Source: Mobula hypostoma | Lineage: Eukaryota | Assembly: GCF_963921235.1 (NCBI RefSeq) | Contig: NC_086097.1 | Location: forward strand, 143,222,001-143,286,000 | Direction of reading: 5' to 3' | Length of the DNA: 64,000 nt | Part shown: positions 2,650 to 63,895 of the stretch, one piece after another | How the letters are laid out: each line of letters starts with the position of its first letter | How positions within the stretch are numbered: the stretch's first letter is position 1 | Translations under genes and position numbers: made by a program | The notes under the pieces: generated by a model | Told to the model about the DNA's origin: nothing | What the model saw: the letters and a program-made list of their open reading frames with translations, nothing else | The model's database searches: none

Positions 2650-3615
2650 ATGCCAACTAGTGGAATGGTGTCGCAGCAACAACCTGGCAGTCAACGTCAG
2701 TAAGCCGAAAGAGCTGATTGTGGACTTCAGGAAGAGTAAGATGAAGGAACACATACCAATCTTCATAGAGGCATCAGAAGTGGAGAGAGTGAGCAGCTTC
2801 AAGTTCCTGGGTGTCAAGATCTCTGAAGATCTAACCTGGTCCCAACATATTGATGTAATTATAAAGAAGGCAAGACAGTGGCTATACTTTATTAGGAGTT
2901 TGAAGAGATTTGGCATGTGAACAAATACACTCAAAAACTTCTATAGTTGTACTGTGGAGAGCATTCTGACAGGCTGCATCAGTGTCTGGTATGGAGGGGC
3001 TACTGCACAGGACCGAAAGAAGCTGCAGAAGGTTGTAAATCTAGTCAACTCCATCTTGGGTACTAGCCTACAAAGTACCCAGGACATCTTTAGGGAGTGG
3101 TGTCTCAGAAAGGCAGCGTCCATTATTAGGGACCTCCAGCACCCAGGGCATGCCCTTTTCTCACTGTTACCATCAGGCAGGAGGTACAGAAGCCTGAAGG
3201 CACACACTCAGCGATTCAGGAACGGGTTCTTCCCCTCTGCCATCCGATTCCTAAATGGACATCAAAGCTTTGGACACTACCTCACTTTTTCTAATATACA
3301 GTATTTCTGTTTTTGCCCTTTTTAAAAATGTATTCGATATATGTAAACAACAGGAATTCTGCAGATGCTGGAAATTCAAGCAACACACATCAAAGTTGCT
3401 GGTGAACGCAGCAGGCCAAGCAGCATCTGTAGGAAGAGGTGCAGTCGACGTTTCAGGCCGAGACCCTTCGTTCGATATATGTAATTGATTTACCTGTTTC
3501 TTATGTTTTATTTTATTATTTTCTCTGCTAGATTACGTATTGCATTGAACTGCTGCTGCTAAGTTAACAAATTTCACGTCACAGCTGGTGATAATAAACC
3601 TCATTCTGATTCTGG
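2650..3615 (+). mobile_element. Rex1/Babar LINE, 5'-truncated, relatively young
   Basis: WCRSNNLAVNVSKPKELIVDFRK...FKFLGV...HPGHALFSLLPSGRRYRS; tail ataataaacc..attctgattctg; an inverted 3'-end piece lies at about 2564-2645. Confidence 0.85.
3347..3470 (-). mobile_element. PLE 3'-terminal mini-insertion truncated inside its hammerhead
   Basis: 14-bp TSD ttcgatatatgtaa at 3333-3346 and 3471-3484; same family as the PLE ends at 6260 and 43250. Confidence 0.85.
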
Positions 3616-3619
3616 TAAA

Positions 3620-6050
3620 GCATATGTGTGTGTGTTTAAATATATTAAGTAGTGCAAAAAGAGAGCAAAAACAATAGTGAGGTGGTATTCATTGTCCATT
3701 CAGAAATCTGATGACTGAGGGGATGAAGTTGTGTCTGAAACACTGTTGTGTGCCTTGAGGTTTCTGTACCACCACCTTGATGGTAGCAGTGGGAAGAGGC
3801 TATGTCATGAGTGATGGGAATCCTTAATGATGGATGCTGGCTTTTACGAGGCATTGCCTTTGAAGGTGTCCTTGATGCTGGGGAGGCTAGTGCTCATGAT
3901 GGAGCTGGCTGAGTTTACAACTTCCTGAAGCTTTCTCCCAACTCTGTTCAGTGACCCCTCCATACCAGATGGAAACACAACCAGTTAGAATGCTGTCTTT
4001 GGTGACATACCAAATCTCCTCAAACTCCTAATGAAATATAACTGCTGTTGTGCCTTCTTTATAGTTGTATCAATATGTTGGGCCATGAAAGATCTTCAGC
4101 GATGTTGACATGCAGGGACTTGAAACAGCTCACCCTTTCCACCGATGAGGACTGGTGTGTGTTCCGTCAACTTCCCCTTCCTGAAGTCCACAATCAATTC
4201 CTTCATCTTACTGACAATGAGTGCAGGATTGTTGTTGCGACATTGCTCAACCAGCTGATCTGTCTTGCTCCTGTAAGCTGCCTCGTCACCATCTGAAATT
4301 CTGCCAACAGTAGTTGTGTAATTGGCAAATTTATAGATGGGGTTTGAGCTGTCCTTAGCCATGCAGTTGGAGTGTAGAAAGAGTAAAGCAGTGGGCTAAG
4401 CACACGCCCTTGAGGTGCACCAGTGTTGATTTTCAGTGAGGAGGAGATGTTATTTCTGATCCGCATTGATTGTGATCTGGTGAGGAAGTCAAGGATCCAG
4501 TTGCAAAGGGGGCTACAGAAACCCAGTTTTGGGGCTTGTTGATCAGAACTGAGGGTATGATTATGTTGAATGCTGAGCTATAATCAATAAACAGTGCACT
4601 GATGTAGGTATTACTATTATCCAGGTGATTCTAGGCCAAATGGAGACTCAGTGAGATTGCATCCACTGTAGGTCTATTGTGGTGATAGGCAAATTGCAGT
4701 GGGCCCAGGTCCTTACTGAGGCAGTTGTTGATGCCAGCCATGACCAACCTTTCAAAAGCACTTCAGTATAGTAGATGTGAGTGCAACTAGTTGATAGTCA
4801 TTGAGGCAGCACACCCTTCTCTTCTTGGGTACTGGTATGATTGTTTCCTTTTGAAGCTGGTAGTAACTTCCAACTGTAGCAGTGGGAGAATGAAGAAGTC
4901 CTTGAACGTTCCCATCAGCTGGTTGGCACAGGTTTTCAGCACCCTACCAGGTACACATCAGAGCCTGATGCTTTGTGAGGGTTCACCCTCTTGAACGATG
5001 TTCTGACATCGGCCTCCGTGACAGATCACAGGGTCACAAGATGTTGCAGAGATTCACTCAGGTGTAGTTTATTCTCCCTTTCAAAGCATCCGTAAAAGGC
5101 CATTGAACTCATTTGGGAGTGAAGCATCAGTGATTCATGATGTTAGGTTATACCTTGTAGGAAGTTATGGGAAATAATGCATCCAACTTCAATTGGAATT
5201 GTTTTTTCAAACTTTAAAATGTCTATCCGTATGTTGTACCTGGATTTCTTGTATAGTTCTGGGTCACTGACTTGATACCACAGATCTAGTCCTCAGCAGT
5301 CTAAGCATCTCCTGGTTCATCCACAGCTTTTGGTTTGGCTATGTTTGGTATGTTCCCGAAGGCGCACACTCATCCACACAGGTCTTGAAGTTGGTGACAA
5401 CTGTGGTGTATTCACTCAAATTCAAAGATGAATCCCTGAATATTATCCAGTCCATAGACTCGAGCAGTCCAGTAAGCACTTCTCCATCTCCGTTGACCAC
5501 ACCTTGGTCCTCACCTCTGCTGCTGAGGTCTAAGTCTCTGACTGTCTGCTGGGAGTAGAAATGCAGCCAGGTGGTTGAACTTTCCAAAGTGTGGGTGTGG
5601 GATGGTATGGCAAGCATCCTTGATGGTTGTATAACAGTGGTGAAGTATGTTGGCATCTCTGGTTTCACAGGTGATATGTTGGTGGTAGTTGTCAGAGACT
5701 TCTTTAAGCTGGCCTGGTAGAGATCTCCTGGGTGTATTGTTTCTTAACTGCTGATTATGGTGCTCAGCTCCTCTAGTGAATGACGTTGGCCAAATGTGGA
5801 ATGTATACCACTATAGCATGATGGTGGGAAAACTCCCTTGGCAGATAAAATAGATGAGACTTGACTGCTAGATGTTCCAGATTGGGTGAGCAGGATTGTG
5901 ACTGAACTGCCACGTTTTTGTGCCACAATGAGTTAATACACCATCTCAACCTTTAAATGACCTGGTTGTCCTGTCTTTGCAGAGAATGATGAAGCCATTT
6001 GGAGTGAAATGATGGGGATGAACCATGCTTCTCGGAAGCAAAGTGCACGC
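3620..6050 (-). mobile_element. Degenerate Rex1/Babar LINE (endonuclease to RT to 3' end)
   Basis: [31 protein letters not shown], endonuclease remnants near 5950-6040. Confidence 0.8.
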
Positions 6051-6209
6051 AGTCCAAAGAAAGACTGCACCCAACAAGACAGACAAATAGCCAATGTGCA
6101 AAAGACAACGAGCTGTGAAAGTAGAAAAAGAAATAATAATATATAAGCAACACACATAAAGTTGCTGGTTGAACGCAGCAGGCCAAGCAGCATCTATAGG
6201 AAGAGGCGC

Positions 6210-6245
6210 AGTCGACGTTTCAGGCCGAGACCCTTCGTCAGGACT
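6210..6245 (-). ncRNA. Minimal type I hammerhead ribozyme motif (PLE)
   Basis: Reverse complement agtc-CTGACGA-agggtctcggcct-GAAA-cg-TC/gact. Confidence 0.78.
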
Positions 6246-6272
6246 AACTGAAGGAAGACTCTTCCTTCAGTT

Positions 6273-6308
6273 AGTCCTGACGAAGGGTCTCGACCTGAAA
6301 CGTCGACT
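6273..6308 (+). ncRNA. Minimal type I hammerhead ribozyme motif (PLE)
   Basis: agtc-CTGACGA-agggtctcgacct-GAAA-cg-TC/gact; stem I agtc:gact. Confidence 0.75.
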
Positions 6309-7752
6309 GCGCCTCTTCCTATAGATGCTGCTTGGCCTGCTGCGTTCAACCAGCAACTTTATGTGTGTTGCTTGAATTTCCAGCATCTGCAGAATTCCTG
6401 TTGTTTGCGTAATAATATATAAGCAGTAAAAACCAAGAACGTGAGATGAAGTGTCCTTGAAAGTGAGTCCATAGGTTGTGGGAGCAGTTCAATGATGGGG
6501 TGAGTGTAGTTATTCCTTCTGGTTCATGAGCCAGATGATTGAGAAGTAATAACTGTTCCTGAACCAGGTGGTGTGGGCCCTGATGATCCAGTACCACCTT
6601 CCTGATGGCAGCAGTAAGAAGAGGGCATGACCTGGATGGTAGGGGTTCTTGATGATGGATGCTACTTTCTTATGACTGTGCTCAGTGGCAAGGAGAACTT
6701 TATCTGTGATGAACTGTACTATATCCACTACTTTTTGTAGGATTTTCCATTCAAGGGTATTGATGTTTGCATACCAGGTCATGAAGCAACTGGTCAATAT
6801 ACTCTCCACCACGCAAGAGGTTTGTCATAGATGTCATTCCAAATGTTCACCAACTTCTAAGGAAGAAGAAATGTTGCCATGCTTTCTTCATAACTGCACT
6901 TGTGTGCTGGGCCCAGGACAGATCCACTAAATGGTAACATGGAGGAATTTAAAGTCACTGACCCTCACCACCTCAGATCCCCTGATGATGAACGGTTGGC
7001 TCCTGGACCTCCAGTTTCCTCTTCCTTTCCTATGATGGTATTGAATGCTGAGTTGTAATCGATAAACAGCAGCTTTTCAAACATCAGTTTAAATTACATT
7101 CAGTTAGGCAGTGTTAAATATATACAGTAATTGTCAGCAACTTGTTGGCAGTAGATAGTCTTGAATGTATACCGTATCCTCGGATAATTTTACGTAGGAG
7201 GTGATGGATATTTTTGCTGATCAGCTCTTTTATTTTGTTTCCTTTGCTCTTACTATTTATTTCCCTTTCCTCCTGTCTCATCAGCATTCCCCATTTTTTC
7301 CCCCTCCCTTCTTCCTAACTGCAATTCATTTTCTTCCTCTCCACATGCATTGATTTAGGTGCCGTTTTCATTTAACCAGTTAATGTCGTTTATCCCTGAT
7401 ATCTGGTTAAGAGCCTCTTGGGGCTATTTGAAACAAGGCCATATTTGTTGAGTTTTCTAAACCACATTGACCCTCCACCAGTGCTTTTTCTGTAAATTAG
7501 CTTGATTGGATCTTTGGTTCCATTGCTGTCTGTGGATATTTGTTGTCCTCATTTTGACTTCTCACTCAAAAAAAGTGATTGAACTCTAAGTGCAGCAAAG
7601 TTTAAATGATGTTACTGGGTTTAGAGGGCTTGAGTTATGAAGAGAGGCTGGGCCATGACTCTTAGGCTGGGACTGTTTACCCTCAAGCAAAGCAAGCGGG
7701 GGGGGTGATCGTTATCAAAATAATAAGAGGCAGTGATCAGCTGGGTCGTCAC

Positions 7753-7967
7753 AAACAAGAGAAAATCTGCAGATGCTAGAAATCCAAGCAATGCACACAA
7801 TGCTGGAGGAACTCAGCAGGCCGGGCAGCATCTATGGGGGAGAAAAAGTACAGTCAACATTTCGGGCAGAGACCCTTCAAGACTCAGGTCTCAGCCCGAA
7901 ATGTCAACTGTACTTTTTTCCATAGATGCTGCCTGGCCTGCTGTATTCCTCCAGCATTTTGTGTGTT
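7753..7967. mobile_element. Older inverted PLE end insertion with decayed hammerheads
   Basis: Imperfect palindrome; diverged 14-bp TSD agctgggtcgtcac (7739-7752) and agctaggtagtcac (7968-7981). Confidence 0.75.
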
Positions 7968-8112
7968 AGCTAGGTAGTCACTGTCATTTAGAGGGTGTGG
8001 ATTTAAGCTGAGGCAAAGATTTAAAGGGGCAGGTTTTTTTTAAATACAGAGGGCGGTGGGTATATGAAACAAGTTCTCAGATGAAATATTGAAATGCGTG
8101 CAGTTGCAGTCT

Positions 8113-8416
8113 GTGTGGGCACATGGCCAAGTGGTTAAGGCATTGGACTAGCGACCTGAAGGTCATGAGTTTGAGCCCCAGCCAAGGCAACATGTTGTGT
8201 CCTTGAGCAAGGCACTTAATCCCACATTGCTCTGCGACGACACTGGTACCAAGCTGTATGGGTCCTAATGCCTTTCCTTTGGACAACATTGGTGTCGTGG
8301 AGAGGGGAGACGCAGCATGGGCAACTGCTGGTCTTCCATACAACCTTGCCCAGGCCTGCACCCTGCAGAGTGAAGACTTTCCAGGCACAGGTCCATGGTC
8401 TCGCAAGACTAACGGA
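8113..8416 (+). mobile_element. tRNA-derived SINE with CORE-like segment
   Basis: A box TGGCCAAGTGG (8124), B-box-like GAGTTTGAGCC, CORE-like tgtgtccttgagcaaggcacttaa; TSD-like tgcagtct/tgcaatct. Confidence 0.75.
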
Positions 8417-8452
8417 TGCAATCTTTGAGAGACGTTTGGACTTGGATTTTTT

Positions 8453-10822: not shown

Positions 10823-13800
10823 ATTCGAAGCAAGAAGGCTTCGAGTGGAATGTCTGACAGGATTTTTGGAAAGAAGGCATTTTACTATTCGGGGTAAAGA
10901 GAGACAAGACTGCGCAGGCACGTGATGTCAGAAGACCGCCATATACAGCGGGCAGCGGAGTGAGAGGGTAGCAGAGTGATAGGGCTTTGGCTCAAACGGG
11001 GCTTTGGCGAAGAAGGGTCAAGGCGAAGAACTGATTGCCAGAGATTTACAGATAACAGCCTTCGACTTCCCCAGCAGACTCCTCCCGTTCTCCTGTGGTC
11101 CTCTTCCACTAACATCCATTGCTCTGTCATGGCAGGTGAGCTCAGACCTGTGCCATGCTCCTCCTGTGACATGTGGAAACTCAGGGAGGCTGACAGTGTC
11201 CCTGAAGACTACGTGTGCAGGAAGTGTGTCCAGCTGCAGCTCCTGACAGACCGCATGGCTGCACTGGAGCTGCGCGTGGACTCACTTTGGAGCATCCGAG
11301 ATGCTGAGAATGTTGTGGATAGCGCATTCAGTGAGTTGGTTACACTGCAGTTTAAGGATGTAAGGAAAGATGGGGAATGGGTGACCAACAGGAAGATAGT
11401 ACAGGTGTCTCCTGTGGTCATCTCCCTCCAAAACAGATATACCGCTTGGAGTCTGTTGGGGGAGATGGCTCATCAGGTGAAGGCAGCAGTAGCCAGGACC
11501 TTGGCACCATGGGTGGCTCTGCTGTGCATGAGGGCAAGAAAAAGAGTGGCGGAGCTGTTGTGGCAGGAGATTCCATGGTAAGGGGAATAGAGAGGAGCTT
11601 CTGTGGCCACAAACGGGACTCCCGTATAATGTGTTGCCTCCCAGCTGCAAGGGTCAGAGATGTCTCAGAGAGGCTGCAGGGCATTCTGAAAAGGGAGGGT
11701 GAGCAGCGAGCTATCGTGGTGCATGTAGGTACTAACAATATAGGAAGAAAGTGTGATGAGGTCCTACAAGCTGAATTTAGGGAGCGAGGAGATAAATTAA
11801 AGAGTAGGACCTCAAAGGTAATAATCTCAGGATTATTACTGGTGCCACCTGCTAGCCAGAGTTGGAATAGCAGGATAGCTGGAATGAATATGTGGCTTGA
11901 GCAGTGGTGTGGGGGGGAGGGTTTCAGATTCTTGGGGCATTGGAATCGCTTCTGGGGGAGGTGGGACCAGTACTGTCCGGACAGTCTACATCTGGGCAGG
12001 GCTGGGGTAAGTGTCCTAGGGAGATTGGGGAGGCTTTAAACTAATATGGCAGGGGGATGGGAACCCACACAGAAAAGAAGAGGGAAGTGATGCAGAGACT
12101 TTAGGTTGCCAAACAATTGATACTAGAACGTGCAATCATCACAGCGATATTTGATTCTGTGCTTCCGGCTCCTTGGAGTACAAATCGATAGTAAATATTA
12201 AAAATTTAAATTATAAATCATAAATAGAAAATGGAATGTAAGGTAGTGCAAAAAAACCGAGAGGCAGGTCCGGATATTTGGAGGGTACGGCCCAGATCCC
12301 AGTCAGGATCCGTTCAGCGGTCTTATCATAGTTGGAAAGAAGCTGTTCCCAAATCTGGCCGTACGAGTCTTCAAGCACCTGAGCCTTCTACCGGAGGGAA
12401 GAGGGACAAAAAGTGTGTTGGCTGGGTGGGTCGTGTCCTTGATTATCCTGGCAGCACTGCTCCGATGGCGTGCGGTGTAAAGTGAGTCCAAGGACGGAAG
12501 ATTGGTTTGTGTGATGTGCTGCGCCGTGTTTACGATCTTCTGCAACTTCTTCTGGTCTTGAACAGGACAACTTCCATACCAGGTTGTGATGCACCCTAGA
12601 ATAATGCTTTCTACGGTGCATCTATAAAAATTAGTGAGGGTTTTAGGGGACAGGCCAAATTTCTTTAGTTTTCTCAGGAAGTAAAGGCACTGGTGGGCCT
12701 TCTTGGCAGTGGACTCTGCTTGGTTGGTCCAAGTCAGGTCATTTGTGATATTGACCCCGAGGAACTTAAAGCTTTTGACCTGTTACACTTGCGCACCACC
12801 GATGTACATTGGGTCGTGTGGACCAAAGCTAGAGTCAGTGAAGAAAAAAGTAAGAGTAGAGTGCATAAAAGTAAACAGCAAACATCGCATAGGTCACTAG
12901 ATTCTAAAAGGACAATGAGTATAAGGGCACTTTATCTAAATGCCCGTGGTATTGGAAACAAGGTTAGTGAACTTGTGGCACAGATCAGTACAAAGGTGCA
13001 TGATTTTGCGGCCATTACAGAAACCTGGTTTCAAGGTGTAGATGACTGGGAATTAAATATCCAAGGGTATCAGGTAATACGGAAAGATAGGCAGGAAGGC
13101 AAAGGAGGTGGGGTGGTGCTCTTAATTAAGGATGAGATCAGGTCGATTGTGAGAGACGGTATAAGATCTACAGAGCAGAATGTTGAGTGCATCTGGGTAG
13201 AGACTAAGAATAGTAAAGGGAAAAAAATCACTCGTGGGTATTGTCTATAGACCACCTAATAAAAATATTGCAGTGGCAGAGGCGATTAACCAAGAAATAA
13301 CTGAGGCTTGAAAGAATGGAGCAGCAGTTAAAATCCCCCATGACTTTAACTTCCACATAGAGTGGGTGAATCAGGTTGGTCAAGGAGTCTTGAGGAGGAC
13401 TTCATAGAATGCATCCGTGATGGCTTTCTTGAGCAGCATGTTAGTGAACCTACAAGGGAAAATGCTATCTTAGGTCTAGTCCTGTGCAATGAGACAGGTA
13501 AGATTAACAATCTTGTAGTCAGGGATCCTGTTGGAAAGAATGATCATAGTTTGATTGAATTTTGCATACAGGTGGAGGATGAAATAGTTATACAGGTATC
13601 TAAAACTAGTTTATCATGCTTGAACAAGGGAGACTACAATGGGATGAGGGAGGAGTTGGCGAATGTGGATTGGGAGCACAGGCTATTTGGTAGGACAGTT
13701 GAGGAACAGTGAAATACTTTCAAAGAGATTTTTCACAGTGCTTAACAAAAGAATATTTCAGTCAAAAGTAAGGATAGTAAGTGTGGGGAGAGCCAGCCTT

Positions 13801-26130: not shown

Positions 26131-26919
26131 AAGTTGGGGAACACGAGTTTGACAAAACCGCCACTTCGGAACACCACTGAAAGTTTATCATTTATGATAT
26201 TTAGTTCAAGGATGTATGCCCTCAGTCTGAGAAGGCAAATTTGTTGTCTTTAAAAACAGCCTCATTAACTTTTCAATACTGTGCTAGGGTGAAAAAAAAC
26301 AAACCAGGCATTAAGTCTCTGAAAGCGAGACTTGGAGCCGACAATTTTTAACTTGAAGCAAAAGTACACATTTAGAATTAAAGCTTTGACTGGTAGAGAA
26401 AATGTTGATCAACATCATAAAGTTAAATCAGGAGCATATAGTGGAAATGGTTATGGATGGTACTTATTCAGAAAGCTTTTGGAGCATTGCCTAGGATTTT
26501 ACTGACTGGAGACTGCTACCTGTACTCTCCGCTGAAGTGTATTGATATCACAAAGAGGGCAAAAAGCAGTGTTACTGACTAAAGGTAGTTTCTGCCTCCA
26601 AAAGCAAAAGTTCTAATGAATGTAACTCAAGTGGTCATCTTTATAATTTCTACCTTCAAAAGCGGATGTGATACAGAAGATAATTTGTGATACAAAGTCC
26701 TTTGTCCTTGATAAAATAAATAGATTTTTTTTGCTGTTGGAGGCCGAAATTTTCTTTCTGTCAGTATCATTGCTTGTTTTCCAAATTGCAACTGCAGCTA
26801 TGCAATCTCCACTGGAAATGTCGACTACATATCATAACTCTTGGACCTGCTGAGTTACTCTAGCAGTTTCTTTTTCATTTGGATGATAATTTGATTCTAT
26901 CCACCACTGGCTCAGGAGA

Positions 26920-28363: not shown

Positions 28364-28437
28364 AACAGAGACAAAGATGAAAAGGAGCCAGCAAATAAAC
28401 AGTTCAAAGAGGACGATGATGAAGAAGTAAAACATAG
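28364..28437 (+). CDS. CCDC12: CCDC12 coding exon 2 (NRDKDEKEPANKQFKEDDDEEVKH-R)
   Basis: Acceptor ttttaattcacag, donor gtgaga; 74 nt, phase 0 to 2; resembles vertebrate CCDC12 DKEDGEPKTKHLREEEEEGEKHR. Confidence 0.85.
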
Positions 28438-28592
28438 GTGAGAGGAATAATAACCATCCCAAGGTTATTTTTAAATTCTTTTGTCCTTTTCACAGGGGCT
28501 CATGTTGTAGCTCCAGTGTAAACTTGAGTTGAAACAATAGATGAAGAGATTGTACTGTGGAGAGCATTCTACAAACAAATTGGCTACATCAC

Positions 28593-28931
28593 CAACACAA
28601 AATAATCTGCAGATGATGTTGTCAAAGGAAGACTCACAATGCGCTGGAGGAACTCTGCAAGTCAGTCAGCATCAGTTGAAAAGATTAGTCGACGTTTCGG
28701 GCCGAAACCCTTCATCAGGACTGAAGGAAGAACTTTGGGGAGGGTTTGAAGAATGCTGGTAGTTGAAAAAAACAGTAATTTTAAAGACACGGGGTGGGGG
28801 AGGGGAAGCAGGGAGGTGATTGGCAGGAGAACAATGCAAAGTAGTAGAAGGAGGCGGAACTATGAGGGAGGTGATGTGAAATAGGGATAGAGGAAGGGAG
28901 GGGAGGGAATTACCGGAAGTTCGAGAATTCT
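28593..28931 (-). mobile_element. PLE 3' end inserted in a Rex1 3' fragment (host pieces about 28540-28592, 28931-29310, 30596-30655)
   Basis: ORF end NFR*, polypyrimidine UTR, hammerhead and tail like the PLE at 40921. Confidence 0.8.
28687..28722 (-). ncRNA. Minimal hammerhead ribozyme motif, core intact
   Basis: Reverse complement agtc-CTGATGA-a-ggg tttcgg ccc-GAAA-cg-TC/gact. Confidence 0.78.
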
Positions 28932-29310
28932 GGTATGGTGAGGGGGCACTGCACAGAAAGTTGTGAACTCAGTCAGCTTATCATGGGCACTAGCCTCCCC
29001 AGCATTCAGGACATCTTCAAGGAGCAATGCCTCAGAAAAGCGGCATCCATCATCAAGGACCCCCATCACCCAGGGCATGCCACTCCTCTCATTGCTACCA
29101 TCAGGGAGACAGTACAGGAGCCTGCAAGTACACACTTAATGATTCAGGAATAGCTTCTTGCCCTTTGCCATCCTATTTCTGAATGGACATTGATCCTATG
29201 AACACTACCTTACTACTTTGTTTTCCTCTTTGCACTGTTTATTTAAGTTTTAAAAATATATGTACTTAGTGTAATTTACAGTTTTTATTATTATGTATTG
29301 GAATGTACTG

Positions 29311-40860: not shown

Positions 40861-41014
40861 AATTCCTTACTTGTATTCATTCCCTCGAAAGGACAAAAGG
40901 CAATGATACATGAAGAGGACAAACACAAAATAATCTGCAGATACTGGGGTCAAAGCAACACTCACAACACGCTGGAGGAACTCAACAGGTCGGGCAGCAT
41001 CCGTGGAAAAGATC

Positions 41015-41050
41015 GGTCGACGTTTCAGGATGGAACCCTTCGTCAGGACT
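41015..41050 (-). ncRNA. Minimal hammerhead ribozyme motif
   Basis: Reverse complement agtc-CTGACGA-agggttccatcct-GAAA-cg-TC/gacc. Confidence 0.7.
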
Positions 41051-42702
41051 GTAGGGGGAAGGGGCAGAGGCCATATAAAGAAGGTGGGGGGAGGGTGGGA
41101 AGGAGAAGGCTGGTAGGTTCCAGGTGAAAAACCAGTAAGGGGAAAGATAAAGAGGTGGGGGAAGGGAGGCAGGTAGGTGATAGGCAGGAAAGATGAAGAA
41201 AGAATAGGGGAAAACACAATGGGTAGTAGAAGGAGGTGGAACCGTGAGGGAGGTGATAGGCAGCTGGGGGAGGGGGCAGAGTGACATAGGGATAGGGGAA
41301 GGGAGGGGAAGGGAATTACCGGAAGTTGGAGAATTCTATGTTCATACCAAGGGGCTGGAGACTACCTGGACGGTATATGAGGTGTTACTCCTCCAACCTG
41401 AGCTTAGCCTCATCATGGCAGTAGAGGAGGCCATGTATGGACATATCTGAATGGGAGTGAGAAGCAGAGTTACTGGGAGATCCTGTCTGTTTTGGCGGAC
41501 GGAGCGGAGGTGCTCGAGGAAGCGGTCCCCAATTTGCGTCGGGTTTCACCGATGTAGAGGAGGCAGCACCGGATGCAATAGATGACCCCAACAGACTCAC
41601 AAGTGAAGTGTTGCCTCACTTGGAAGTACTGTTTGGGGCCCTGAATGGTGGCAAGAGAGGAAGTGTAGGGACAGGTGTAGCACTTGCGCTTACAGGGATA
41701 AGTGCCGGGTGGGAGATCCGTGGGGAGGGACGTGTGGACCAGGGAGTCGCGGCGGGACCGATCTCTGCGGAACGCGGAGACGGAAAGACGTGCTTAGTGG
41801 TGGGGTCCTGTTGAAGGTGGCGGAAGTTGCGAAGGATAATGTGTTGGATCTGGAGGGATCTTGGGCCTTCTACCTGCACTCGATCTTTTTATCTCCATCT
41901 GTCGCCGAGACATCAACTGTCTCAACTTCACTACTCCTCTCTCCTGTTCCAACCTCACTCCTTCTGAACGCACTGCCCTCCACTCTCTCCACACTAACCC
42001 CAACCTCACCATCAAACCCGCTGACAAAGGTGGTGCTGTAGTAGTCTGGCGGACCGACCTCTACCTCACTGAGGCCAAACGGCAGCTCTTTGACACCTCC
42101 TCTTACTTACCTACTTACTTACTTACTTACCCCTGGAACAGGACCCCACCAAAAAACATCAAACCATTGTCTCCCTCAGCCACTAAACTCATAATTCCCA
42201 CACCCCGTACCGCTCGGTTTTACCTCCTTCCCAAGATCCACAAGCCTGACTGTCCCGGCAGACCCATAGTTTCTGCCTGCTCCTGTCCCACCGAACTTGT
42301 ATCTGCCTACCTGGACTCCATTTTGTCACCCATAGTTCAGTCTCTCCACACCTACATCTGGGATACATCCCATGCCCTCCACCTCTTCAATAACTTCCAG
42401 TTTCCCGGTCCCAACCACTTCATTTTCACTATGGATGTCCAATCCCTATACACCTCCATTTCCCATCAAGAAGGCCTCAAAGCCCTCCGCTACTTTCTGG
42501 ATAATAGACCTCACCAGTTCCCCACCACCACTACCGTTCTCCGGTTGGCAGAACTGGTTCTCACAATCAATAACTTCTCTTTTGGCTCTTCCCACTTTCT
42601 TCAGACCAAGGGTGTAGCTATGGGAACTTCGCATGCGCCCTGGCTATGCCTGCCTCTTCGTTGGTTATGTGGAACAGTCTGTGCTCCAAACCTATTCTGG
42701 TA

Positions 42703-43352
42703 TATTGGCGAGACCCGACGCAGACTGGGAGACCCCTTTGCTGAACATCTACGCTCTGTCCGCCAGAGAAAGCAGGATCTCCCAGTGGCCACACATTTTA
42801 ATTCCACATCCCATTCCCATTCTGACATGTCTATCCACGGCCTCCTCTACTGTAAAGATGAAGCCACACTCAGGTTGGAGGAACAACACCTTATATTCCG
42901 TCTGGGTAGCCTCCAACCTGATGGCATGAACATCGACTTCTCTAACTTCCGCTAAGGCCCCACCTCCCCCTTGTACCCCATCTGTTACTTATTTTTATGC
43001 ACACATTCTTTCTCTCACTCTCCTTTTTCTCCCTCTGTCCCTCTGAATATACCTCTTGCCCATCCTCTGGGTCCCCCCCCCCCACCCTCCTTGTCTTTCT
43101 TCCCGGACCTCCTGTCCCATGATCCTCTCGTATCCCCTTTTGCCTATCACCTGTCCAGCTCTTGGCTCTATCCCTCCCCCTCCTGTCTTCTATCATTTTG
43201 GATCTCCCCCTCCCCCTCCAACTCTCAAATCCCTTACTCACTCTTCCTTCAGTTAGTCCTGACGAAGGGTCTCGGCCTGAAACATCGACTGCGCCTCTTC
43301 CTACAGATGCTGCCTGGCCTGCTGCATTCACCAGCAACTTTGATGTGTGTTG
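42703..43352 (+). mobile_element. Second PLE family 3' fragment nested in the RT of the first
   Basis: 11-bp TSD ctattctggta at 42692-42702 and 43353-43363; YIGETRRRL..EHLRS..GMNIDFSNFR*. Confidence 0.9.
43255..43290 (+). ncRNA. Hammerhead motif with stem III CG>CA change
   Basis: agtc-CTGACGA-agggtctcggcct-GAAA-ca-TC/gact. Confidence 0.65.
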
Positions 43353-44673
43353 CTATTCTGGTACTGCTCCCTAACTTTTCCTTCGGTACATTGACGACTA
43401 CATTGGTGCTGCTTCCTGCACCCATGCTGAGCTCGTCAATTTCATCAACTTTACTTCTAACTTCCACCAAGCCCTCAAATTCACTTGGTCTATCTCGGAC
43501 ACTTCTCTCCCCTTTCTTGATCTCTCGGTCTCCATCTCTGGAGACAGACTGTTCACTGACATCTTCTACAAGCCCACTGACTCTCATAACTACCTCAACT
43601 GTACCTCTTCCCACCCCGCCACATGCAAAAATGCCATTCCCTATTCCCAGTTCCTCCGTCTCCGCCGCATCTGCTCCGAGGATGAGGTTTTCCGTTCCAG
43701 GACATCTCAAATGTCCTCTTTCTTTAAGGATCGTGGTTTCCCTTCTGCTGTCATCAATGATGCCCTCACCCGCATCTCCTCCATTTCCCGCACTTCGGCT
43801 CTCACCCCATCCTTCCGCCACCACAACAGAGACAGAGTTCCCCTTGTCCACACCTACCACCCCACTAGCTTCCGGATCCAACACATTATCCTCCGCAAGT
43901 TCCGCCACCTTCAACAGGACCCCACCACTAAGCGTATCTTTCCCTCTCCGCCTTCCGCAGGGATCGGTCCCTCCGCGACTCCCTGGTCCACACGTCCCTC
44001 CCCACGGATCTCCCACCCGGCACTTATCCCTGTAAGCACAAGTGCTACACCTGTCCCTACACCACCTCTCTTGCCACCATTCAGGGCCCCAAACAGTACT
44101 TCCAAGTGAGGCAACACTTCGCTTGTGAGTCTGTTGGGGTCATCTATTGCATCCGGTGCTCCCGGTGCGGCCTCCTTTACGTCGGTGAAACCCGACGCAG
44201 ATTGGAGGACTGCTTCGTCGAGCACCTCCACTCCGTCCGCCAAAACAGACAGGATCTCCCAGTAACTTTGCTTCTCACTCCCATTCAGATATGTCCATAC
44301 ATGGCCTCCTCTACTGCCATAATGAGGCTAAACTCAGGTTGGAGGAGCAAAACCTCATATACCGTCTAGGTAGTCTCCAGCCCCTTGGTATGAACATAGA
44401 ATTCTCCAACTTCCGGTAATTCCCTCCCCCTCCCTTCCCCTATCCCTTTGTCACTCTGCCCCCACCCCCAGCTGCCTACCACCTCCCTCTTGGTTCCGCC
44501 TCCTTCTACTACCCATTGTGTTTTCCCCTATTCTTTCTTCATCTTTCCTGCCTATCACCTCCCTGCCTCCCTTCCCCCACCTCTTTATCTTTCCCCTTAC
44601 TGGTTTTTCACCTGGAACCTACCAGCCTTCTCCTTCCCACCTTCTTTATAGGGCATCTGCCCCTTCCCCCTAC

Positions 44674-44709
44674 AGTTCTGACGAAGGGTTCCAGCCTGAA
44701 ACGTCGACC
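44674..44709 (+). ncRNA. Minimal hammerhead ribozyme motif
   Basis: agtt-CTGACGA-agggttccagcct-GAAA-cg-TC/gacc. Confidence 0.7.
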
Positions 44710-46265
44710 GATCTTTTCCACGGATGCTGCCCGACCTGCTGAGTTCCTCCAGCGTGTTGTGAGTGTTGCTTAAACCTGTCTTTTGTCCTCTTCAGGAAAT
44801 TGAAAGAGATCTTTGGCTAAATTCCTTTTGCTGGTAGGAACATGGAATGATCTTTTGGAATTGATGGTAGAGGCAGCTACAGTACAGTTACTATATGTCA
44901 GATAATTGGACAGGTATGTGAATAGGGAAGTTTTATAGGTTGGCATAAGTGACTAGGGTTGAACAGCTGTTTCTGTGATGTATATATGTATGAATACAGT
45001 CAAGGATAAAACTTCCATTTATGAAACATCAGCTTAGCTAAACAATCCTAAAGCATTTCACAGACTTATCAAAAACAAAAATGTGCAGTTACATAAAGCT
45101 AGTTGACTAAATACTGGGTAAGAGTGAAACATTTCAAGGAGTATATAGATTGAGAGGCAGATGGGTTTTCTATTGTGTGTCTCTGTATTGTATATTGTGT
45201 TGCGTGTTTATTACGGGTGATTTGTTATGTGGGTTGGGGTGTGGTAGAAGTGAAGAGTATAGTTACGTACTCATGCTTTGTTTTTAGTTCAAGTTTTAGG
45301 CTGGTTAGAGGCAGCCGGGAATATTTTTTCATTGACCACTTCGCTTATCGTTTAATTACACTTAAGACGGCTTGGTTTAAGTACTTTTGAATATGCTTAG
45401 ACTGTTTATTTCATTAGTCTTAGTTTCATTCATTTTATTATTTCAAGACAGTTGATTTTATTGGTCTCTCAGTAAGGGATTGAGCATACTGTATGTACTT
45501 TCACCAACTTGCATCTTATTTGTGGAGAGCGTGTCATACAGTGTCAAACATCTATGCTTAGCCTCTGAGCGCTTTTGGTTTGTTTGAAAGAAACCACTGT
45601 AGAATTATAGATACTGTCTTGGTAGATGGAGAGGTGACAGGATGATTGAGAAATTAAATCTGAGAGATGATTAGAAGAGAATATCTAATCCTATTCTTAT
45701 TCCTATTTTCTTCATCATCATTTCGACAGAACAGTACTGTAGATTTTTATTGTTGTTCTGCCTTCGGAAGCTGATCCCTGCATTTCAGACCTCTTGTTTG
45801 TTGTGTTATTACTTTGGCTTAACTTTAAAACATTTAATATTGAAATGATATTTGCTGCTTTTAAGTGACAGAATTGGGTTTATTATCACTATGTGGTGAA
45901 ATGGATTGGTTTGTGGCAGCAGTACTGAGTATGACAAAAATTACAAAGTTACAGAACTAAAGAAATATTCCTGTAACTCTTTCCTGATGGTAGTAATGCA
46001 AATAGGTCATTTCCCAGATGTTGAAGGCCTTTATGGATGCTGCCTTCTTGAGGCAATCCCTCTTGAAGATGTCATCAATGACAGGGAGGGTTGTGGTCAT
46101 GAAAGAATTGGTCAAGTCTACAACCCTCTGCAGCCTCTTGCGATCCTGTGCATTGTATTTATGCACCAATTCGCAGTATAATAAGGAAATAATTTAGGAA
46201 GTGTGGAAAAAATACATTTTTATAAAAGACACTTGGAAACATGGACAGAACTACAGTTTGCATGA

Positions 46266-46375
46266 AGGGTCTCGGCCTGAAACGTCGACTGCACCTCTTC
46301 CTAGAGATGCTGCTGCGTTCACCAGCAACTTTTATGTGTGTTGCTTGAATTTCCAGCATCTGCAGAATTCCTGTT
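46266..46375 (+). mobile_element. PLE 3' mini-insertion truncated in the hammerhead core
   Basis: 10-bp TSD gtttgcatga at 46256-46265 and 46376-46385. Confidence 0.85.
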
Positions 46376-46589: not shown

Positions 46590-46669
46590 AGAATTAAAGT
46601 TGCGCAACTATGTCCCAGAAGACAAAGAATTGAAGGAACGTCTCGTGCCCAATGTCAAACCAGCCTCAG
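46590..46669 (+). CDS. CCDC12: CCDC12 coding exon 3 (ELKLRNYVPEDKELKERLVPNVKPAS)
   Basis: Acceptor ttttcttccag, donor gttagt; 80 nt; Cwf18-domain signature LRNYVPED. Confidence 0.95.
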
Positions 46670-48494: not shown

Positions 48495-48556
48495 TTGAAG
48501 ATAAGGTGAAAGACCAGCTTGAAGCAGGGAAGCCTGAACCTGTCATTGAAGAAGTG
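48495..48556 (+). CDS. CCDC12: CCDC12 coding exon 4 (VEDKVKDQLEAGKPEPVIEEV)
   Basis: Acceptor ttttgtgttcacag, donor gtacgt; 62 nt, in frame with exons 3 and 5. Confidence 0.95.
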
Positions 48557-51640: not shown

Positions 51641-51966
51641 TAGCATTAGCAGCATTTATTTCTAGTTCTCTTGCGTGGTTCATGCTGAAATATTGACTGT
51701 TTACTCTTCTCCATAGATGCTGCCTGGCCAGCTGAGTTCCTCCAGCATTTTGTTTATGTTGCTTTGGATTTCCAGCATCTACAGATTTTCTCATGTTTGT
51801 CAATGGGCTAAAAGGTCAGTTTCTGCTCCTTTCTTTTGTGTTCTCGTGTTCATGTCAGATAGAAAGCATCTTTATTGAAAATGGAATTGAACACTCTTTC
51901 ATCAACACCCCACTTCTGACTTGATAAATGGTAGGTCATTAAAACAGCTGAACATGAGTGAATTAT

Positions 51967-53434
51967 AAATGAGAAAATCTGCAGATGCTGGATAATCAAG
52001 AAAGCACACAAAATGCTGGAGGAACTCAGCAGGCCAGGCAGCATCTATGGAAAAGAGTAAACAGTTGATGTTTTGGGCCAAGAGCCTTCAGCAGAACGGG
52101 AGAAAAAAATAAGAGAATTCAGAATAAGGAGGTGAGGAGAAGGGAGGAAGAAATACAAAGTGATAGATGAAACTGGGTGGGGAGAGGGTTGAAGTAAAGA
52201 GCAGGGAAGTCAATTAGTGAAAGAGATAAAGGGCTAATGAAGGAGGAATCTGATAAGAGAGGACAGAAGGCAATGGAAAAAAGGAAGGGGGAGGAGCACC
52301 AGAGGGAGGCGATGGTCGGGTAAGAAGATAAGGTGAGAGAAGGAAATGGGAGTAGGAATGGTGAAGAAAGTTGTGGAGGAGGGGGCATTACCGGAAGTTC
52401 GAGTAATCGATGTTCATGCCGCCAGGTTAGAGCTTACCCAGACAGAATACAAGTGTTGCTCCGCCAACCCAAGTGTGGCCTCATTGTGGCAGTGAGGCCA
52501 TGAACTGACATGTTGGAATAGGGATGGGAAGTGGAATTAAAATGAGTGGCCACTGGGAGATCCTGCTTTTTCTGGCAGATGGAACGTAGGTGCTCGGTGA
52601 AGTGGCCTCCCAATCTGTGTCAGGTCTCACTGATAAACAGGAGGCCGCACCAGAAGCACTGGATGCAGTAGATGACCCCAACAGACTCACAGGTGAAGTG
52701 TTGTCTCACCTGGAAGGACAGTTTGGGGCCCTAAATGGTAGTGAGAGAGGTGGTGTAGGGGCACATGTAGCACTTGTTCCGCTTGCAAGGATAAGTGCCA
52801 GGAAGGAGATCATTGGGGTGGGATGAATGGACAAGGGAGTTGCGTAGGGAGCGATTCTGTGACAAGCAGAAAGTGGGGAGGGGGAAGGGAAGACATGCTT
52901 GGAGGTGGGATCCCATTGGAGATGGTGGAAATTATGGAGAGTTATATGCTGGATGACGAGGCTGGTGAGGTGGTAGGTGAGGACAAAAGGTACCCTATCC
53001 CTGGTGGGGTGGCAGGAGGATGGGGTGAGGGTAGATGTGCGCGAAATGGAAGAGATGCAGTTGAGGGCAGCATTAATGGTGGAGGAAGGGAAGCTGCTTT
53101 CTTTGAAGAAGGAGGGCATCTCCTTAGTTCTGGAATAAAAAGCCTCATCCTGAGAGCAGATGTGGTGGGGCCAGAGGAATTGAAAGAAGGGGATGGCATT
53201 TTTATAAGTAATAGGGTGGGAAGAGGTATATTCCAGGTAGCTGTGAGAGTCAGTGGGATTATAAAAGATATCAGTAGATAAACTGTCTCTAGAGATGGAC
53301 AAAGATTGAGAAAGGGGAGGGAGGTGTGGGAAATGGACCACGTAAATTTGAGGAAGTTGGAGGTGAAATTGATGAGCTTCGCAGGAAGCGGCACCAATGC
53401 AATTGTCGATGTAGCATAGGGAAACTTGGGGAGT
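51967..53434 (-). mobile_element. Third PLE family (RT C-terminus, GIY-YIG, decayed hammerhead at 52063-52098); continues at 54711-54936
   Basis: CYIDNCIGAAS, TDIFYNPTDSHSYLEYTSSHP; GVAMGTRMGPSYA in the 54711-54936 piece. Confidence 0.85.
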
Positions 53435-54710
53435 AATCAGAATCAGGTTTATCATCACCGGCATGTGCTGTGAAATTTGTTAACTTAGCAGCAGCAGTTC
53501 AATGCAATGCATAATTTAGCAGAGAAAAGATAATAATAATAAATAAAATAAAAATAATAAATAAACAAGTAAATCAATTACGTATATTGGATAGATTTTA
53601 AAAAACTGCAAAAACAGAACTACTGTATATTTTTAAAAAAAGAAGTGAGGTAGTGTCCAAAGATTCAATGTCCAGTTAGGGATCGGCAGAGGGGAAGAAC
53701 CCGTTCCTGCATCGCTGAGTGTGTGCCTTCAGGCTTCTGTACCTCCTACCTGATGGTAACAGTGAGAAAAGGGCATGCCCTGGGTGCTGGAGGTCCTTAA
53801 TAATGGACACTGCCTTTCTGAGACACCGCTCCCTAATGATGTCCTGTGTACTTTGTAGGCTAGTACCCAAGGTGGAGCTGACTAGACTTACAACCTTCTG
53901 CAGCTTCTTTGGGTCCTGTGCAGTAGCCCCTCCATACCAGACAGTGATGCAGCCTGTCAGAATGCTCTCCACAGTACAACTATAGAAGTTTTTGAGTGTA
54001 TTTGTTGACATGCCAAATCTCTTCAAACTCCTAATAAAGTATAGCCACTGTCTTACCTTCTTTATAACTACATCGATACGTTGGGACCAGGTTAGATCCT
54101 TCGAGGTCTTGACACCCAGGAACTTGAAGCTACTCAGTCTCTCCATTTCTGATCCCACTATGAGGACTGGTATGTGTTCCTTTGTCTTACCCTTCCTAAA
54201 GTCCACAATCAGCTCTTTCGTCTTACTGATGTTGAGTGCCAGGTTGTTGCTGTGGTACCACTCCACTAGTTGGCATATCTCACTCCTGTATGCCCTCTCA
54301 TCACCACCTCAGATTCTACCAACAATGGTTGTATCGTTAGCCAATTTATAGATGGTAGTTGAACTATGCCTAGTCACACAGTCATGTGTATATAGAGAGT
54401 AGAGCAGTGGGCTAAGCACACATCCCTGAGGTGCGCCAGTGTTGATCGTCAGCGAGGAGGGTATGTTATTGTCATATCTAGCCTTCTGGTTAGGAAGTTG
54501 AGGATCCAATTGCAGAAGGAGTTACAGCGGCCCAGGTTCTGCAACTTCTCAATCAGGATTGTGGGAATGATAGTATTAAATGCTGAGCTACAGTCGATGA
54601 ACAGCATCCTGACATAGGTGTTTGTGTTGTCCAGGTGGTCTAAAGTTGTGTGGACAGCCATTGAGATTGCGTCTGCCATTGACCTATTGTGACGATAGGC
54701 AGTTGCAATG
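53435..54710 (-). mobile_element. Young Rex1/Babar LINE fragment interrupting the PLE
   Basis: [30 protein letters not shown], 196-aa C-terminal ORF; same subfamily as 2650-3615. Confidence 0.9.
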
Positions 54711-55176: not shown

Positions 55177-55770
55177 AAAATACACTTATAGCCATGTCTG
55201 ACACACAGCTCTGAAGCAGCACAAACTGTGGTCTGCCAGTCAGACAGTCCATTATCCAGGATATAATGAAAGTGCCAACCTGCATTGAACAGAACTTTTC
55301 CCCTAGCAATGGGGGCTGTGTGGTATCGAAGGCACTTGAGAAATTGAAAAACATGATCCTCACAGTGCTGCCGTGGCTTGCTCAGGTTCTGTTCAGCAGG
55401 CAGATGACTGCATCGTCAACTCCAATGTGATTCTGGTAGACAAACTACAGGGGATTGAGGGTTGATCTGACCAGGGATCAGAGGTGAGCCAGGACCAACC
55501 TCTCGTGGGTATTCATGTTGTGAGAGGTCAGGGCCACTGAACGGTAGTCATTCAAGGTTTTTGTTTGGCCCTTCTTGGTTACTGGGTCCACACCTGATGT
55601 TTTCCACACAGCCGGGACCATTTCCAAGCTGAAATTCAGATTGAAAATGCTCTGGAGAACTCCACACAGCTGCTCAGCACACTCCTTCAGCACCTTGGGG
55701 TTCACATCATCTGGTCCCAATGCTTTGCCATGTCTGAGTTTCCCCAGAGCCCTTCTCTCCTGTTCATAGT
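55177..55770 (-). mobile_element. Rex1-like RT fragment of a different subfamily
   Basis: KALGPDDV..LKECAEQL, LNDYRSVALTS, IMFFNFSSAFDT. Confidence 0.75.
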
Positions 55771-55975
55771 TCACCCCTCCCCCATGGTTTCACCTATCAC
55801 CTGCTTCTTTGTATTTCTTCCTCCCCCCTGCCCCCCCCTACCCTCTGTTCACCTTACTCATCTTTTTTTCTCCTGTTCTGCTGAAGGGTCTTGGCCTGAA
55901 ACATCAACTGTTTACTTGTTTCCATAGTTGCTGCTCGGCCTGCTGAGTTCCTCCAGCATTTTGTGTGTGGTGCTT
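55770..55975 (+). mobile_element. PLE 3' end with variant hammerhead at 55874-55909
   Basis: gtt-CTGCTGA-agggtcttggcct-GAAA-ca-TC/aac. Confidence 0.75.
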
Positions 55976-56297
55976 GAATATGAGTGAGTTAGGATAGTGC
56001 CCTGGGGAACTTGTGCAGTAATATTCTGGGTCTGGATTGATGAACCTTTGAGAATTACAGCTATTTTACAATGTTATACTCGGTCTGTCCTTTAGATTCC
56101 TTTACCAACCATTCACTGTACAAGACCAATCATACTTAACTATTAAACTTACTTTTTCTATTCTGTATTTGCTCCATAATCAGTCCTCCACCCATTACAG
56201 CCGGTTTCTTAAGCTCATTTTAGGAAACAACTTGCTGTGCAGTACCTTACAGAAAATAATGTGATTTCTCCTTGCCTAATTTGGTTGCATTCCCTAA

Positions 56298-57195: not shown

Positions 57196-57230
57196 GACTT
57201 GGTGAACCTTGCCCCCAGGAAGCCTGACTG
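57196..57230 (+). CDS. CCDC12: CCDC12 coding exon 5 (DLVNLAPRKPD-W)
   Basis: Acceptor ctttgtag, donor gtatgt; 35 nt; conserved NLAPRKPDWDLKRD motif. Confidence 0.96.
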
Positions 57231-57392: not shown

Positions 57393-57469
57393 GGATCTGA
57401 AAAGGGATGTGGCAAAAAAACTAGAAAAGCTAGAGAAGAGAACACAGAGAGCAATAGCAGAACTAATCC
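57393..57469 (+). CDS. CCDC12: CCDC12 coding exon 6 (DLKRDVAKKLEKLEKRTQRAIAELI)
   Basis: Acceptor tttttttttcag, donor gtaagt; 77 nt; conserved coiled coil. Confidence 0.96.
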
Positions 57470-62429: not shown

Positions 62430-62638
62430 TTTTGATTGTTTCTCTCTGCGGTTTGTGGTGCATATTGGGCTGCAACCTTGCTGTTTCTTTAGCATTTGTC
62501 CATTTTTTACGAGGCTGAGTTGCTTGCTCGATGCTCAAATCAGCACAGATGAAAAGTGTGCAAAGAGCTGGCTGGATTTGAACCCAAGACCACTTGCCTC
62601 GAGGTCTGGTGCGAATGCCACTACATCACCGGCTGGCT
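62430..62638 (-). mobile_element. tRNA-derived SINE (same family as 50748)
   Basis: gggttcaaatcc B box on - strand; colinear with 50748-50952. Confidence 0.7.
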
Positions 62639-62721
62639 AATATGTTTGTTTGCCTTAAGCTAATTCTTAGATTTGGATATATTATTGAGTGATGTTAATT
62701 TAGATAATTTATTTCCCACAG

Positions 62722-62801
62722 GTGAGAAACTAAAAGGCAATGAAGATGACCTAGCATCTGCAGTTGGAGCAGTAAAACAGGAGGATTATGACTCTGAGTG
62801 A
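62722..62801 (+). CDS. CCDC12: CCDC12 last coding exon 7 (R-EKLKGNEDDLASAVGAVKQEDYDSE*)
   Basis: Acceptor atttcccacag; in frame; TGA at 62799-62801; resembles RERLKGQEDSLASAV...DSD. Confidence 0.93.
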
Positions 62802-63236
62802 CTCCTGGTCCTCTGGTGGACAGTAATTTTGGGTCAGCCACAAGCTAGTTAACTTCAGGGTATAGGTACATGCACGCCATTTTATGTCCCCTGTTAACCT
62901 TCTCTTTGAAGAGAAAATGCCAATGTATCAGATCAGGGTTGAAGCACATTGAAAAGGTGGCCTTCATTCCACCTTACAGGCAGGACTCTGCTCTCTACTT
63001 TGACTTCTGGCTGCTGATGTAATGATCCCATTGTCTCTGTTGCCACTGTACCATATACTGATCTGCAACGAACTTCCATCTTCAATTCAAATGTCTTGTT
63101 ATTATGCTAATTTTAAATTTAATTATGGATGTTTATTTTTCTATGATATTGATTGTAATACATCTTCGCTAGATCACCTGTCATTTCATTTCCAGGTCAG
63201 AGCCCAGGTTTGTTCTTTAAAAATCAGCCCTTCTGA

Positions 63237-63242
63237 AATAAA
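63237..63242 (+). terminator. Candidate polyadenylation signal of CCDC12 (3' UTR about 62802-63260)
   Basis: First AATAAA I found after the stop, followed by a U/GU-rich tract (gtcattgtttttactcatttgctttg). Confidence 0.6.
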
Positions 63243-63342
63243 GGTCATTGTTTTTACTCATTTGCTTTGTTTTCCCTGTGCCTTAATGTTTAAAAATTGA
63301 TTGCAGTGTTCAGCATGGTCTAACTAGCTCATTGTGCAGTTA

Positions 63343-63895
63343 GCACAATAATGCTGGAGGAACTCAGCAGGTCCAGCGGCATCTATGGAGAGGAATAAAC
63401 AGTTGATGCTTCAGGCTGAGGCCCTTCATCAGGATTGGAACAGAAGGGGGGGGGAGAAGAGCAAGAAGAAGAAAGTGGGGTGGTAAGAAGGAGTACAAGC
63501 TGGCAAGTGATTGGTGAAGCCAGATGTGAAAAATGGTGGGTGGGGTAGGTGGTGAAAGGAGAAACAGGGTGATGGGTGGAAAGGGTAAAGGGCCGAAGAA
63601 GGAAAATGGACCATGGGTGAAAGGGGAGGAAGAGGGGCCCCAGAGGGAGGTGATGGGCAGGTGAGGAGAAGAGAATGGGGTAGGTGGGGAGTCAGAATGT
63701 GAATTGGAAAAAGAGAGAAGGAGAGGGTGTAGAAGTACCAGAAGTTAGATAAATCAATGTTCATGCTGTCAAGTTGGGGGATACCCAGATGGAATACAAG
63801 GTGTAGCTCCAACTTGAGAGTGGCCTCATCAGGGCAGCAGAGGAGGCCACCATTGGTTGTCGGAATGGGAAGGGGCAGTGGAATTAAAATGGTTA
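63343..63895 (-). mobile_element. PLE 3' fragment with decayed hammerhead at 63401-63436
   Basis: ELHLVFHLGIPQLDSMNIDLSNFW; CTGATGA..GAAG. Confidence 0.8.

Follow-up and report, generated by a model that had tools for sequence, protein, structure and literature searches.

The window analyzed here, a 64-kb stretch (64,000 nucleotides) of Mobula hypostoma contig NC_086097.1 (positions 143,222,001 to 143,286,000), holds two interleaved sets of features: a plus-strand gene of the cwf18 family, which we take to be CCDC12 (the name of the vertebrate cwf18 member), and, dispersed in and around its introns, the ends of Penelope-like elements (PLEs) whose pseudo-long terminal repeats (pLTRs) contain a minimal hammerhead motif. 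An earlier note on this DNA had listed about 12 related motifs at 14 coordinates; the pLTR repeat is present at all 14, although these sites reduce to about 10 insertions, eight of them being the arms of four inverted insertions. A further decayed pLTR remnant on the plus strand (26815–26869) was missing from that list; it is weak and is excluded from all counts.

Six plus-strand exons of the host gene, with AG/GT ends and matching phases, extend over 34 kb (28364–62801). Pfam cwf18 matches occur in two of the four exons scanned, and the window yielded no first coding exon. Sequencing runs were consulted as assembled contigs (their RNA nature being guessed for 19 of 21 rows); a GT..AG joint, 46666>48492, appears in the probable RNA runs X1 and X2 and in neither of the DNA-like runs X20 and X21. 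This joint, together with the exons that flank the copies, bears out the earlier proposal that several copies lie in a transcribed intron. Five sense copies are inside host introns (43255, 44674, 46266, 51686, and 55874), two more (6273 and 7890), upstream of the first exon found, probably sit in the first intron, and the 63401 copy is antisense and beyond the AATAAA.

Motif anatomy and preservation

Copies were scored for intactness against the 36-nt motif copy at 6245–6210; positions follow hammerhead numbering and the cut is placed by the NUH rule. At least 22 of 36 positions match this reference in 12 of the 14 sites, and at 7890 and 51686 the 5′ half of the motif is gone, both copies beginning inside it. 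The anatomy is that of a PLE minimal type I hammerhead with a palindromic stem III, as the consensus in the earlier note had it, but the two boxes of that consensus (CUGANGA and GAAA) are both kept in only six of the 14 sites (6245 minus, 6273 plus, 28722 minus, 41050 minus, 43255 plus, and 44674 plus). Five of these six retain the ACGU palindrome (43255 reads ACAU), and three (6245 minus, 6273 plus, and 28722 minus) combine core and ACGU with a perfect 4-bp AGUC/GACU stem I; in the 44674 copy core and ACGU are intact and stem I is weakened. Best preserved is the 28722 motif, a solo copy antisense to the host gene, with G10.1-C11.1, ACGU, and a 4-bp stem I. An extra A lies between positions 9 and 10.1 in 12 of 12 aligned window copies, and the closing pair 10.1-11.1, scored in nine window rows, is G-U in seven and G-C in two, the G-U change sitting at a CpG. 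The cut had been predicted to fall after C6304 in the plus-strand copy, and C17 of the 6273 copy is indeed base 6304.

Elsewhere the motif has decayed. CUGA is absent from 3445, 7855, 7890, 46266, and 51686; A6C is found at 52063 and 55874 (with G12A in addition at 52063), and GAAG replaces GAAA at 63401. The rate reported for a natural A6C hammerhead is below 0.1 per minute (PMC3088659). With core or palindrome damaged or missing in nine of 14 sites, and with the close pairs inverted rather than arranged as tandem dimers, the notion of a family of working ribozymes at these loci is not supported. Differences between copies are concentrated at three CpG sites, and identity over 70 nt separates three sequence groups, in agreement with the claim of at least three PLE families: group A (3445, 6210, 6273, 43255, and 46266), group B (41015 and 44674, joined by 28687 at 82–84% identity), and group C (7855, 7890, 51686, 52063, 55874, and 63401).

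A specific motif pattern gave seven matches in the window versus 0.00 across 100 shuffles, and a structural descriptor gave six versus a shuffle mean of 0.03 (maximum 1, 100 shuffles); a sequence-only core pattern was marginal (six versus a mean of 1.42, with six reached by two of 100 shuffles). The motif pattern returned no matches in the metagenome and viral contigs searched.

Carrier element and related loci

The copies are linked to PLE coding remnants. The frame 41840–42952, a reverse transcriptase (RT) remnant, finds 1315 proteins at E ≤ 1e-10 among 4053 candidates; the relatives listed bear RVT_1 and/or GIY-YIG accessions, and the best match, a Chiloscyllium punctatum protein at 68% identity, is in line with cartilaginous fish. 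Pfam and PDB sequence searches did not recognize this remnant. An 828-residue relative mapped onto the window places RT and then endonuclease (EN) on the same strand as, and upstream of, motifs 41015, 43255, 44674, and 52063, and in groups A and B the motif lies ~260–300 nt 3′ of the EN stop codon, on the sense strand of the element. Between RT and EN, the linker CKHKCYTC (43932–44264 frame) fits CX2-5CxxC, the linker motif of Neptune elements (PMC8557442). The EN piece has an atlas score of 0.95, its neighbor clusters carrying GIY-YIG in 11–18% of members. No full-length open reading frame (ORF) lies between direct pLTRs in the window (the longest remnant starts at residue 176 of 828 and is frameshifted and interrupted), and the region 3′ of the motif holds no reading frame common to the groups.

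Loci encoding related RTs in metagenomes (the best 80 of 386) carry the same arrangement. The structural descriptor found 26 matches in 24 of these 80 loci, 25 of them on the RT sense strand and the single antisense match being an inverted pLTR, relative to 0 or 1 match in each of 20 shuffles of all loci. Stem III is palindromic in 25 of the 26 matches, in eight different sequences, even though the descriptor does not require a palindrome; the extra A recurs in 22 of 24 loci, as does G10.1-C11.1, with G-U in one of 24. Each of stem I positions 1–3 shows four pair types, pairing here being demanded by the descriptor. The other 56 of the 80 loci have no descriptor match, and many contigs stop near the ORF. 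That 24 of the 80 loci have this architecture on their sense strand identifies the motif with the class described in 2014 (see below). Two of these loci preserve a near-complete PLE, one between inverted hammerhead-bearing pLTRs (L019:1087 minus and L019:3582 plus, with a motif closely like that of the window), the other between direct ones (L018:30 and L018:3449).

Insertions, host transcript, and fate of the motif

The four inverted insertions consist of the head-to-head arm pairs 6210/6273, 7855/7890, 41015/44674, and 52063/55874, and all four have one long-tail and one short-tail arm; an inverted pLTR with a tail at one end is a described PLE layout (PMC8557442, PMC3846280). The tail pattern looks as if the two arms had been primed from two RT start sites. 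Exact direct repeats of 10–16 bp flank four of the 10 insertions and degenerate ones flank two (exact cores of 5 and 8 bp, read by eye), while none was found at the remaining four, the B pair included. The B-pair arms are linked instead by their similarity, 93% identity over 912 aligned bases. On either side of the B element (40885–40919 and 44772–44800), ~13 bases are shared in inverted rather than direct orientation. Nested within this element, the group A fragment at 43255 has an empty form in all four runs examined, and the 46266 insertion is bypassed in contigs of organisms J and K, which together indicate that group A moved recently.

All 14 copies span C17 and none begins at the cut site, as expected if uncut RNA served as template; uncut RNA is reported as the main retrotransposition template of an Anolis element (PMC11167929). 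The 5′ ends are instead staggered: some lie 9 to 44 nt before C17, others well upstream within the ORF. In five of 14 copies (3471, 7879, 7887, 46266, and 51685) the end falls in box 1 or stem II, 9–24 nt before the cut site, where reverse transcription may stall on the structure of the motif. Both arms 52098–52063 and 55874–55909 share changes outside CpG sites (A6C and a U before C3), which suggests that their template, or a mobile subfamily, had a damaged core. These end points also inform on whether the short units are non-LTR retrozymes (LTR, long terminal repeat) amplifying independently through circular RNA. Several insertions are just 110–270 nt long, with little beyond motif and tail, and one chondrichthyan genome is reported to contain retrozymes (preprint 10.64898/2026.07.22.740005), but the staggering is that of truncated PLE copies and the motif is absent from tandem arrays in the window (none of six tandem-repeat rows overlaps a motif), such that we give this explanation hardly any weight.

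Among the seven sense copies, core and palindrome are both kept only in 6273 and 44674, each of which shares its transcript with an antisense arm. Because the close pairs are inverted, a transcript would yield sense and antisense arms pairing with one another, not a tandem dimer. In folding predictions the 6273 copy forms a 114-bp hairpin with its left arm, with 15 of 15 core bases paired at probability 1.0, and a 145-bp duplex joins the 41015 and 44674 ends, the antisense arm being transcribed before 44674. The two intact sense copies are thus predicted to be sequestered by their own antisense arms. Within the host pre-mRNA, such inverted arms would pair into long double-stranded RNA, which could be a substrate for editing.

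One or more of the intronic copies might have been domesticated, cutting CCDC12 pre-mRNA to control splicing or turnover in the manner of the RECK intronic hammerhead. Domestication has been proposed for amniote intronic hammerheads (PMC6155905), and five sense copies do lie within CCDC12 introns, with two more upstream of the first exon found, in a gene spliced in X1 and X2. Against this stand the sequestered state predicted for the only two candidates, the bypass of 46266 in organisms J and K, and the mismatch of 43255 (ACAU), which could not pair cleanly with 44674 (ACGU). The stem I changes of 44674 are, moreover, absent from most depth in the DNA-like runs, and we regard domestication as extremely unlikely. 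At this B motif (among 39 of 475 differences listed; depth sums are not copy numbers), most depth in the runs examined reads C at 44677 and the DNA-like runs read T at 44709, which restores a perfect stem I. T at 44705 (U17) makes up 98–99.8% of depth in X20 and X21, the DNA-like runs from two other organisms, and 29–44% in X1 and X2, which makes U17 a common state among relatives. This U17 lengthens the palindrome to AACGUU.

We conclude that the copies are very probably minimal type I hammerheads in the pLTRs of Neptune-type PLEs, left as 5′-truncated insertions in and around CCDC12 introns and now inert passengers. The anatomy, the link to PLEs, the host exons, and the inverted arms are established by the observations above; that the parent element cleaved and that these loci are inert we infer. 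In an active parent, the motif would follow the RT-EN stop codon by ~260–300 nt on the sense strand and, by analogy with other PLEs, would cut after C17 only once two copies pair via ACGU or the protein of the element assists folding; with only CG between A15.1 and U16.1, a lone copy cannot close stem III. On this reading the window copies were reverse-transcribed from RNA uncut at C17 and now persist as passengers: some are truncated or mutated, others run antisense to the host gene or pair with the inverted arm of the same insertion. Cleavage at these loci appears unlikely on the predicted folds.

Several points weigh against this conclusion. The carrier is judged a Neptune-type PLE from one linker motif, and the Pfam match of the GIY-YIG EN piece (E 0.0066) is below the curated cut-off. 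No hammerhead family was found among 16 Rfam matches to the window at E ≤ 10, and covariation, as run on nine window copies, was not above shuffles (100–389 of 500 scored as high). Pairing of stems I and II in the related loci is imposed by the descriptor and does not constitute independent evidence, and groups A and B carry G10.1-U11.1 whereas the relatives mostly have G-C. The folding predictions leave out splicing, proteins, and co-transcriptional timing, and they give as the minimum-energy fold of the monomer a rod, in which box 1 is paired with ACGUC.

The rod raises a different explanation, namely that the motif in these fish families no longer cleaves and persists as a signal for retrotransposition, in the form of a rod-like hairpin or a protein-binding site. 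It pairs G5-G8 with C15.2-C17 at about −10 kcal/mol, compared with −6 to −8 kcal/mol (P 0.3–0.5 vs ≤ 0.014); the A6C common to both 52063/55874 arms implies a template whose core was probably damaged yet moved, and hammerhead mutants of the Anolis element left in vitro insertion unchanged (PMC11167929). The same Anolis motif, however, cleaves with protein (PMC11167929), the rod is possible in only five of the 24 related loci, where boxes, extra A, and palindrome persist, and the score of the rod in the window does not clearly exceed that of shuffles (21–269 of 500), the apparent covariation lying at CpG sites. Loss of cleavage throughout these families seems very unlikely to us.

A separate proposal, which we hold to be unlikely, is that vertebrate Neptune elements carry an unrecognized pLTR intron of ~260–300 nt, running from a GT at the ORF stop to an AG in or near stem I. 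A donor-like CCG|GTAAT overlaps the ORF stop codon in groups B and C and in the 28687 copy (degenerate at 63401), and is absent from the one group A copy. By a simple scoring matrix it scores about 3 relative to 0.2–5.1 for host donors. The acceptor AG, inside stem I or 4 nt before it, scores 6.4–6.5 in 43255, 41015, and 44674 relative to 4.1–9.1 in five host acceptors, but its score drops to 2.1 in 28687 and turns negative in the truncated 6273, and group C copies lack the AG altogether. The untranslated region (UTR) between the two is AG-poor and 80% pyrimidine, a pyrimidine content that inflates any acceptor score, and an AG falls within the last 6 nt before C3 in only three of 24 related loci, such that the acceptor is not a general PLE feature. 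None of the 15 joints listed lies at 43253, 43257, or 44676, which neither supports nor refutes splicing, and the depth dip across the candidate intron occurs in DNA-like runs too and provides no evidence. Were the intron real, splicing would replace part of the stem I 5′ strand and switch the hammerhead between unspliced and spliced forms, as proposed for Drosophila Penelope (PMC4209133), and the overlap of intron and hammerhead would extend from Drosophila to vertebrates.

Coordinates of PLE copies and host exons in the window
Position	Strand	Feature
3347..3471	−	Group A pLTR end, 5′ cut inside box 1 (CUGA gone), long tail; 14-bp direct repeat 3333–3346 / 3471–3484
6145..6258	−	Left arm, short tail, of inverted group A insertion; intact motif 6245–6210
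6260..6409	+	Right arm, long tail, of same group A insertion as 6145..6258; intact motif 6273–6308; 16-bp flanking direct repeat
7749..7879	−	Left arm, long tail, of inverted group C insertion; motif cut in box 1, CpG-type changes
7887..7972	+	Right arm, short tail, partner of 7749..7879; begins in stem II, without box 1
28364..28437	+	Host exon by splice sites and reading phase; no Pfam match alone
28591..28931	−	B-like PLE 3′ end; motif 28722–28687
40919..41854	−	Inverted 5′-truncated long-tail arm, group B: EN coding remnant, 3′ UTR, motif 41050–41015
41864..42701	+	PLE RT coding remnant; resumes beyond nested insertion
42702..43353	+	Nested group A 3′ fragment: EN remnant, pyrimidine-rich UTR, motif 43255–43290 (ACAU); 11-bp direct repeat
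43354..44771	+	Remainder of group B element: RT end, CX3CXXC linker, GIY-YIG EN, UTR, motif 44674–44709, short tail
46266..46375	+	Group A 110-nt insertion, starts 20 nt 5′ of cut site, without box 1; 10-bp direct repeat
46590..46669	+	Host exon, cwf18 E 0.043 (below curated cut-off)
48495..48556	+	Host exon
51685..51801	+	Group C pLTR end, starts at GAAA box, without box 1
51972..53443	−	Left arm, long tail, of inverted group C insertion; motif 52098–52063: A6C, G12A, ACAU
55752..55979	+	Right arm, short tail, partner of 51972..53443; motif 55874–55909: A6C, ACAU
57196..57230	+	Host exon
57393..57469	+	Host exon, Pfam cwf18 E 3.1e-10 (above curated cut-off)
62722..62801	+	Probable last coding exon; AATAAA at 63238
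63342..63891	−	Group C PLE 3′ end just beyond probable poly(A) signal; motif 63436–63401, GAAG

The window also contains repeats of other kinds. Two 3′ ends of the long interspersed nuclear element (LINE) type (2650–3241 and 53685–54276) are 93% alike, in opposite orientation, and 50 kb apart, with a Pfam ALKBH8_N match on their coding remnant. Many further LINE fragments are present, including an esterase-like ORF (11356–12039) and an RVT_1 piece (14683–15084), and a plus-strand retroelement remnant with a weak zf-RVT match (29275–30409) is of a class unlike its neighbors.

Comparison with known PLE hammerheads

Cervera and De la Pena (2014, PMC4209133) described minimal hammerheads (min-HHRs) from fish PLEs, namely Xena, Poseidon, and Neptune elements; these min-HHRs showed weak activity, and only when dimeric, trimeric, or supplied with an extra helix III. 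The window motif shares with them the type I topology, the lack of helix III, the palindromic 15.2-16.2, and the extra base between 9 and 10.1, as well as a helix I of 4–5 bp, mostly solo copies, and close opposite-strand pairs; it differs in its short stem II (3–4 bp) and in the G-U closure of groups A and B, where the published motifs have G10.1-C11.1 (PMC4209133). One of the two supplements of that paper contains no shark or ray name, and our literature search found no paper devoted to chondrichthyan PLE hammerheads. The suggestion that chondrichthyan variants are poorly characterized holds to this extent, although this class has been described from fish PLEs, and hammerhead-bearing repeats from one chondrichthyan genome are reported in a 2026 preprint (10.64898/2026.07.22.740005). 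What the window adds is decayed copies of a published hammerhead class, an ordinary finding. It nevertheless bears on the purpose of PLE hammerheads, in that every copy would have been made from RNA uncut at C17 and one insertion seemingly came from a template with a damaged core; inverted insertions would also mask their own hammerhead in the host transcript, which may explain their tolerance in introns.

The palindromic stem III is also that of the small PLE variants for which cleavage as dimers through this stem has been modeled (review, PMC6765202). In Drosophila virilis Penelope, the 3′ boundary of the pLTR intron coincides with the start of helix I on its 5′ side (PMC4209133, PMC8557442), comparable to the acceptor-like AG in or next to stem I of the window copies, but that intron is 75 bp long with splicing shown, relative to a candidate of ~260–300 nt here. 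Non-LTR retrozymes, found in one chondrichthyan genome, are likewise PLE-derived type I hammerheads, but they are defined by tandem hammerhead units, of which the window has none (preprint 10.64898/2026.07.22.740005). The Poseidon element PAc of Anolis carolinensis (Frangieh et al, 2024, PMC11167929) has, like the window copies, a pLTR hammerhead and two 3′ end points that make the tail optional, and no RNA-seq ends at its hammerhead cut site are reported there; its ORF starts within the hammerhead and it belongs to the Poseidon clade, whereas the linker in the window points to Neptune.

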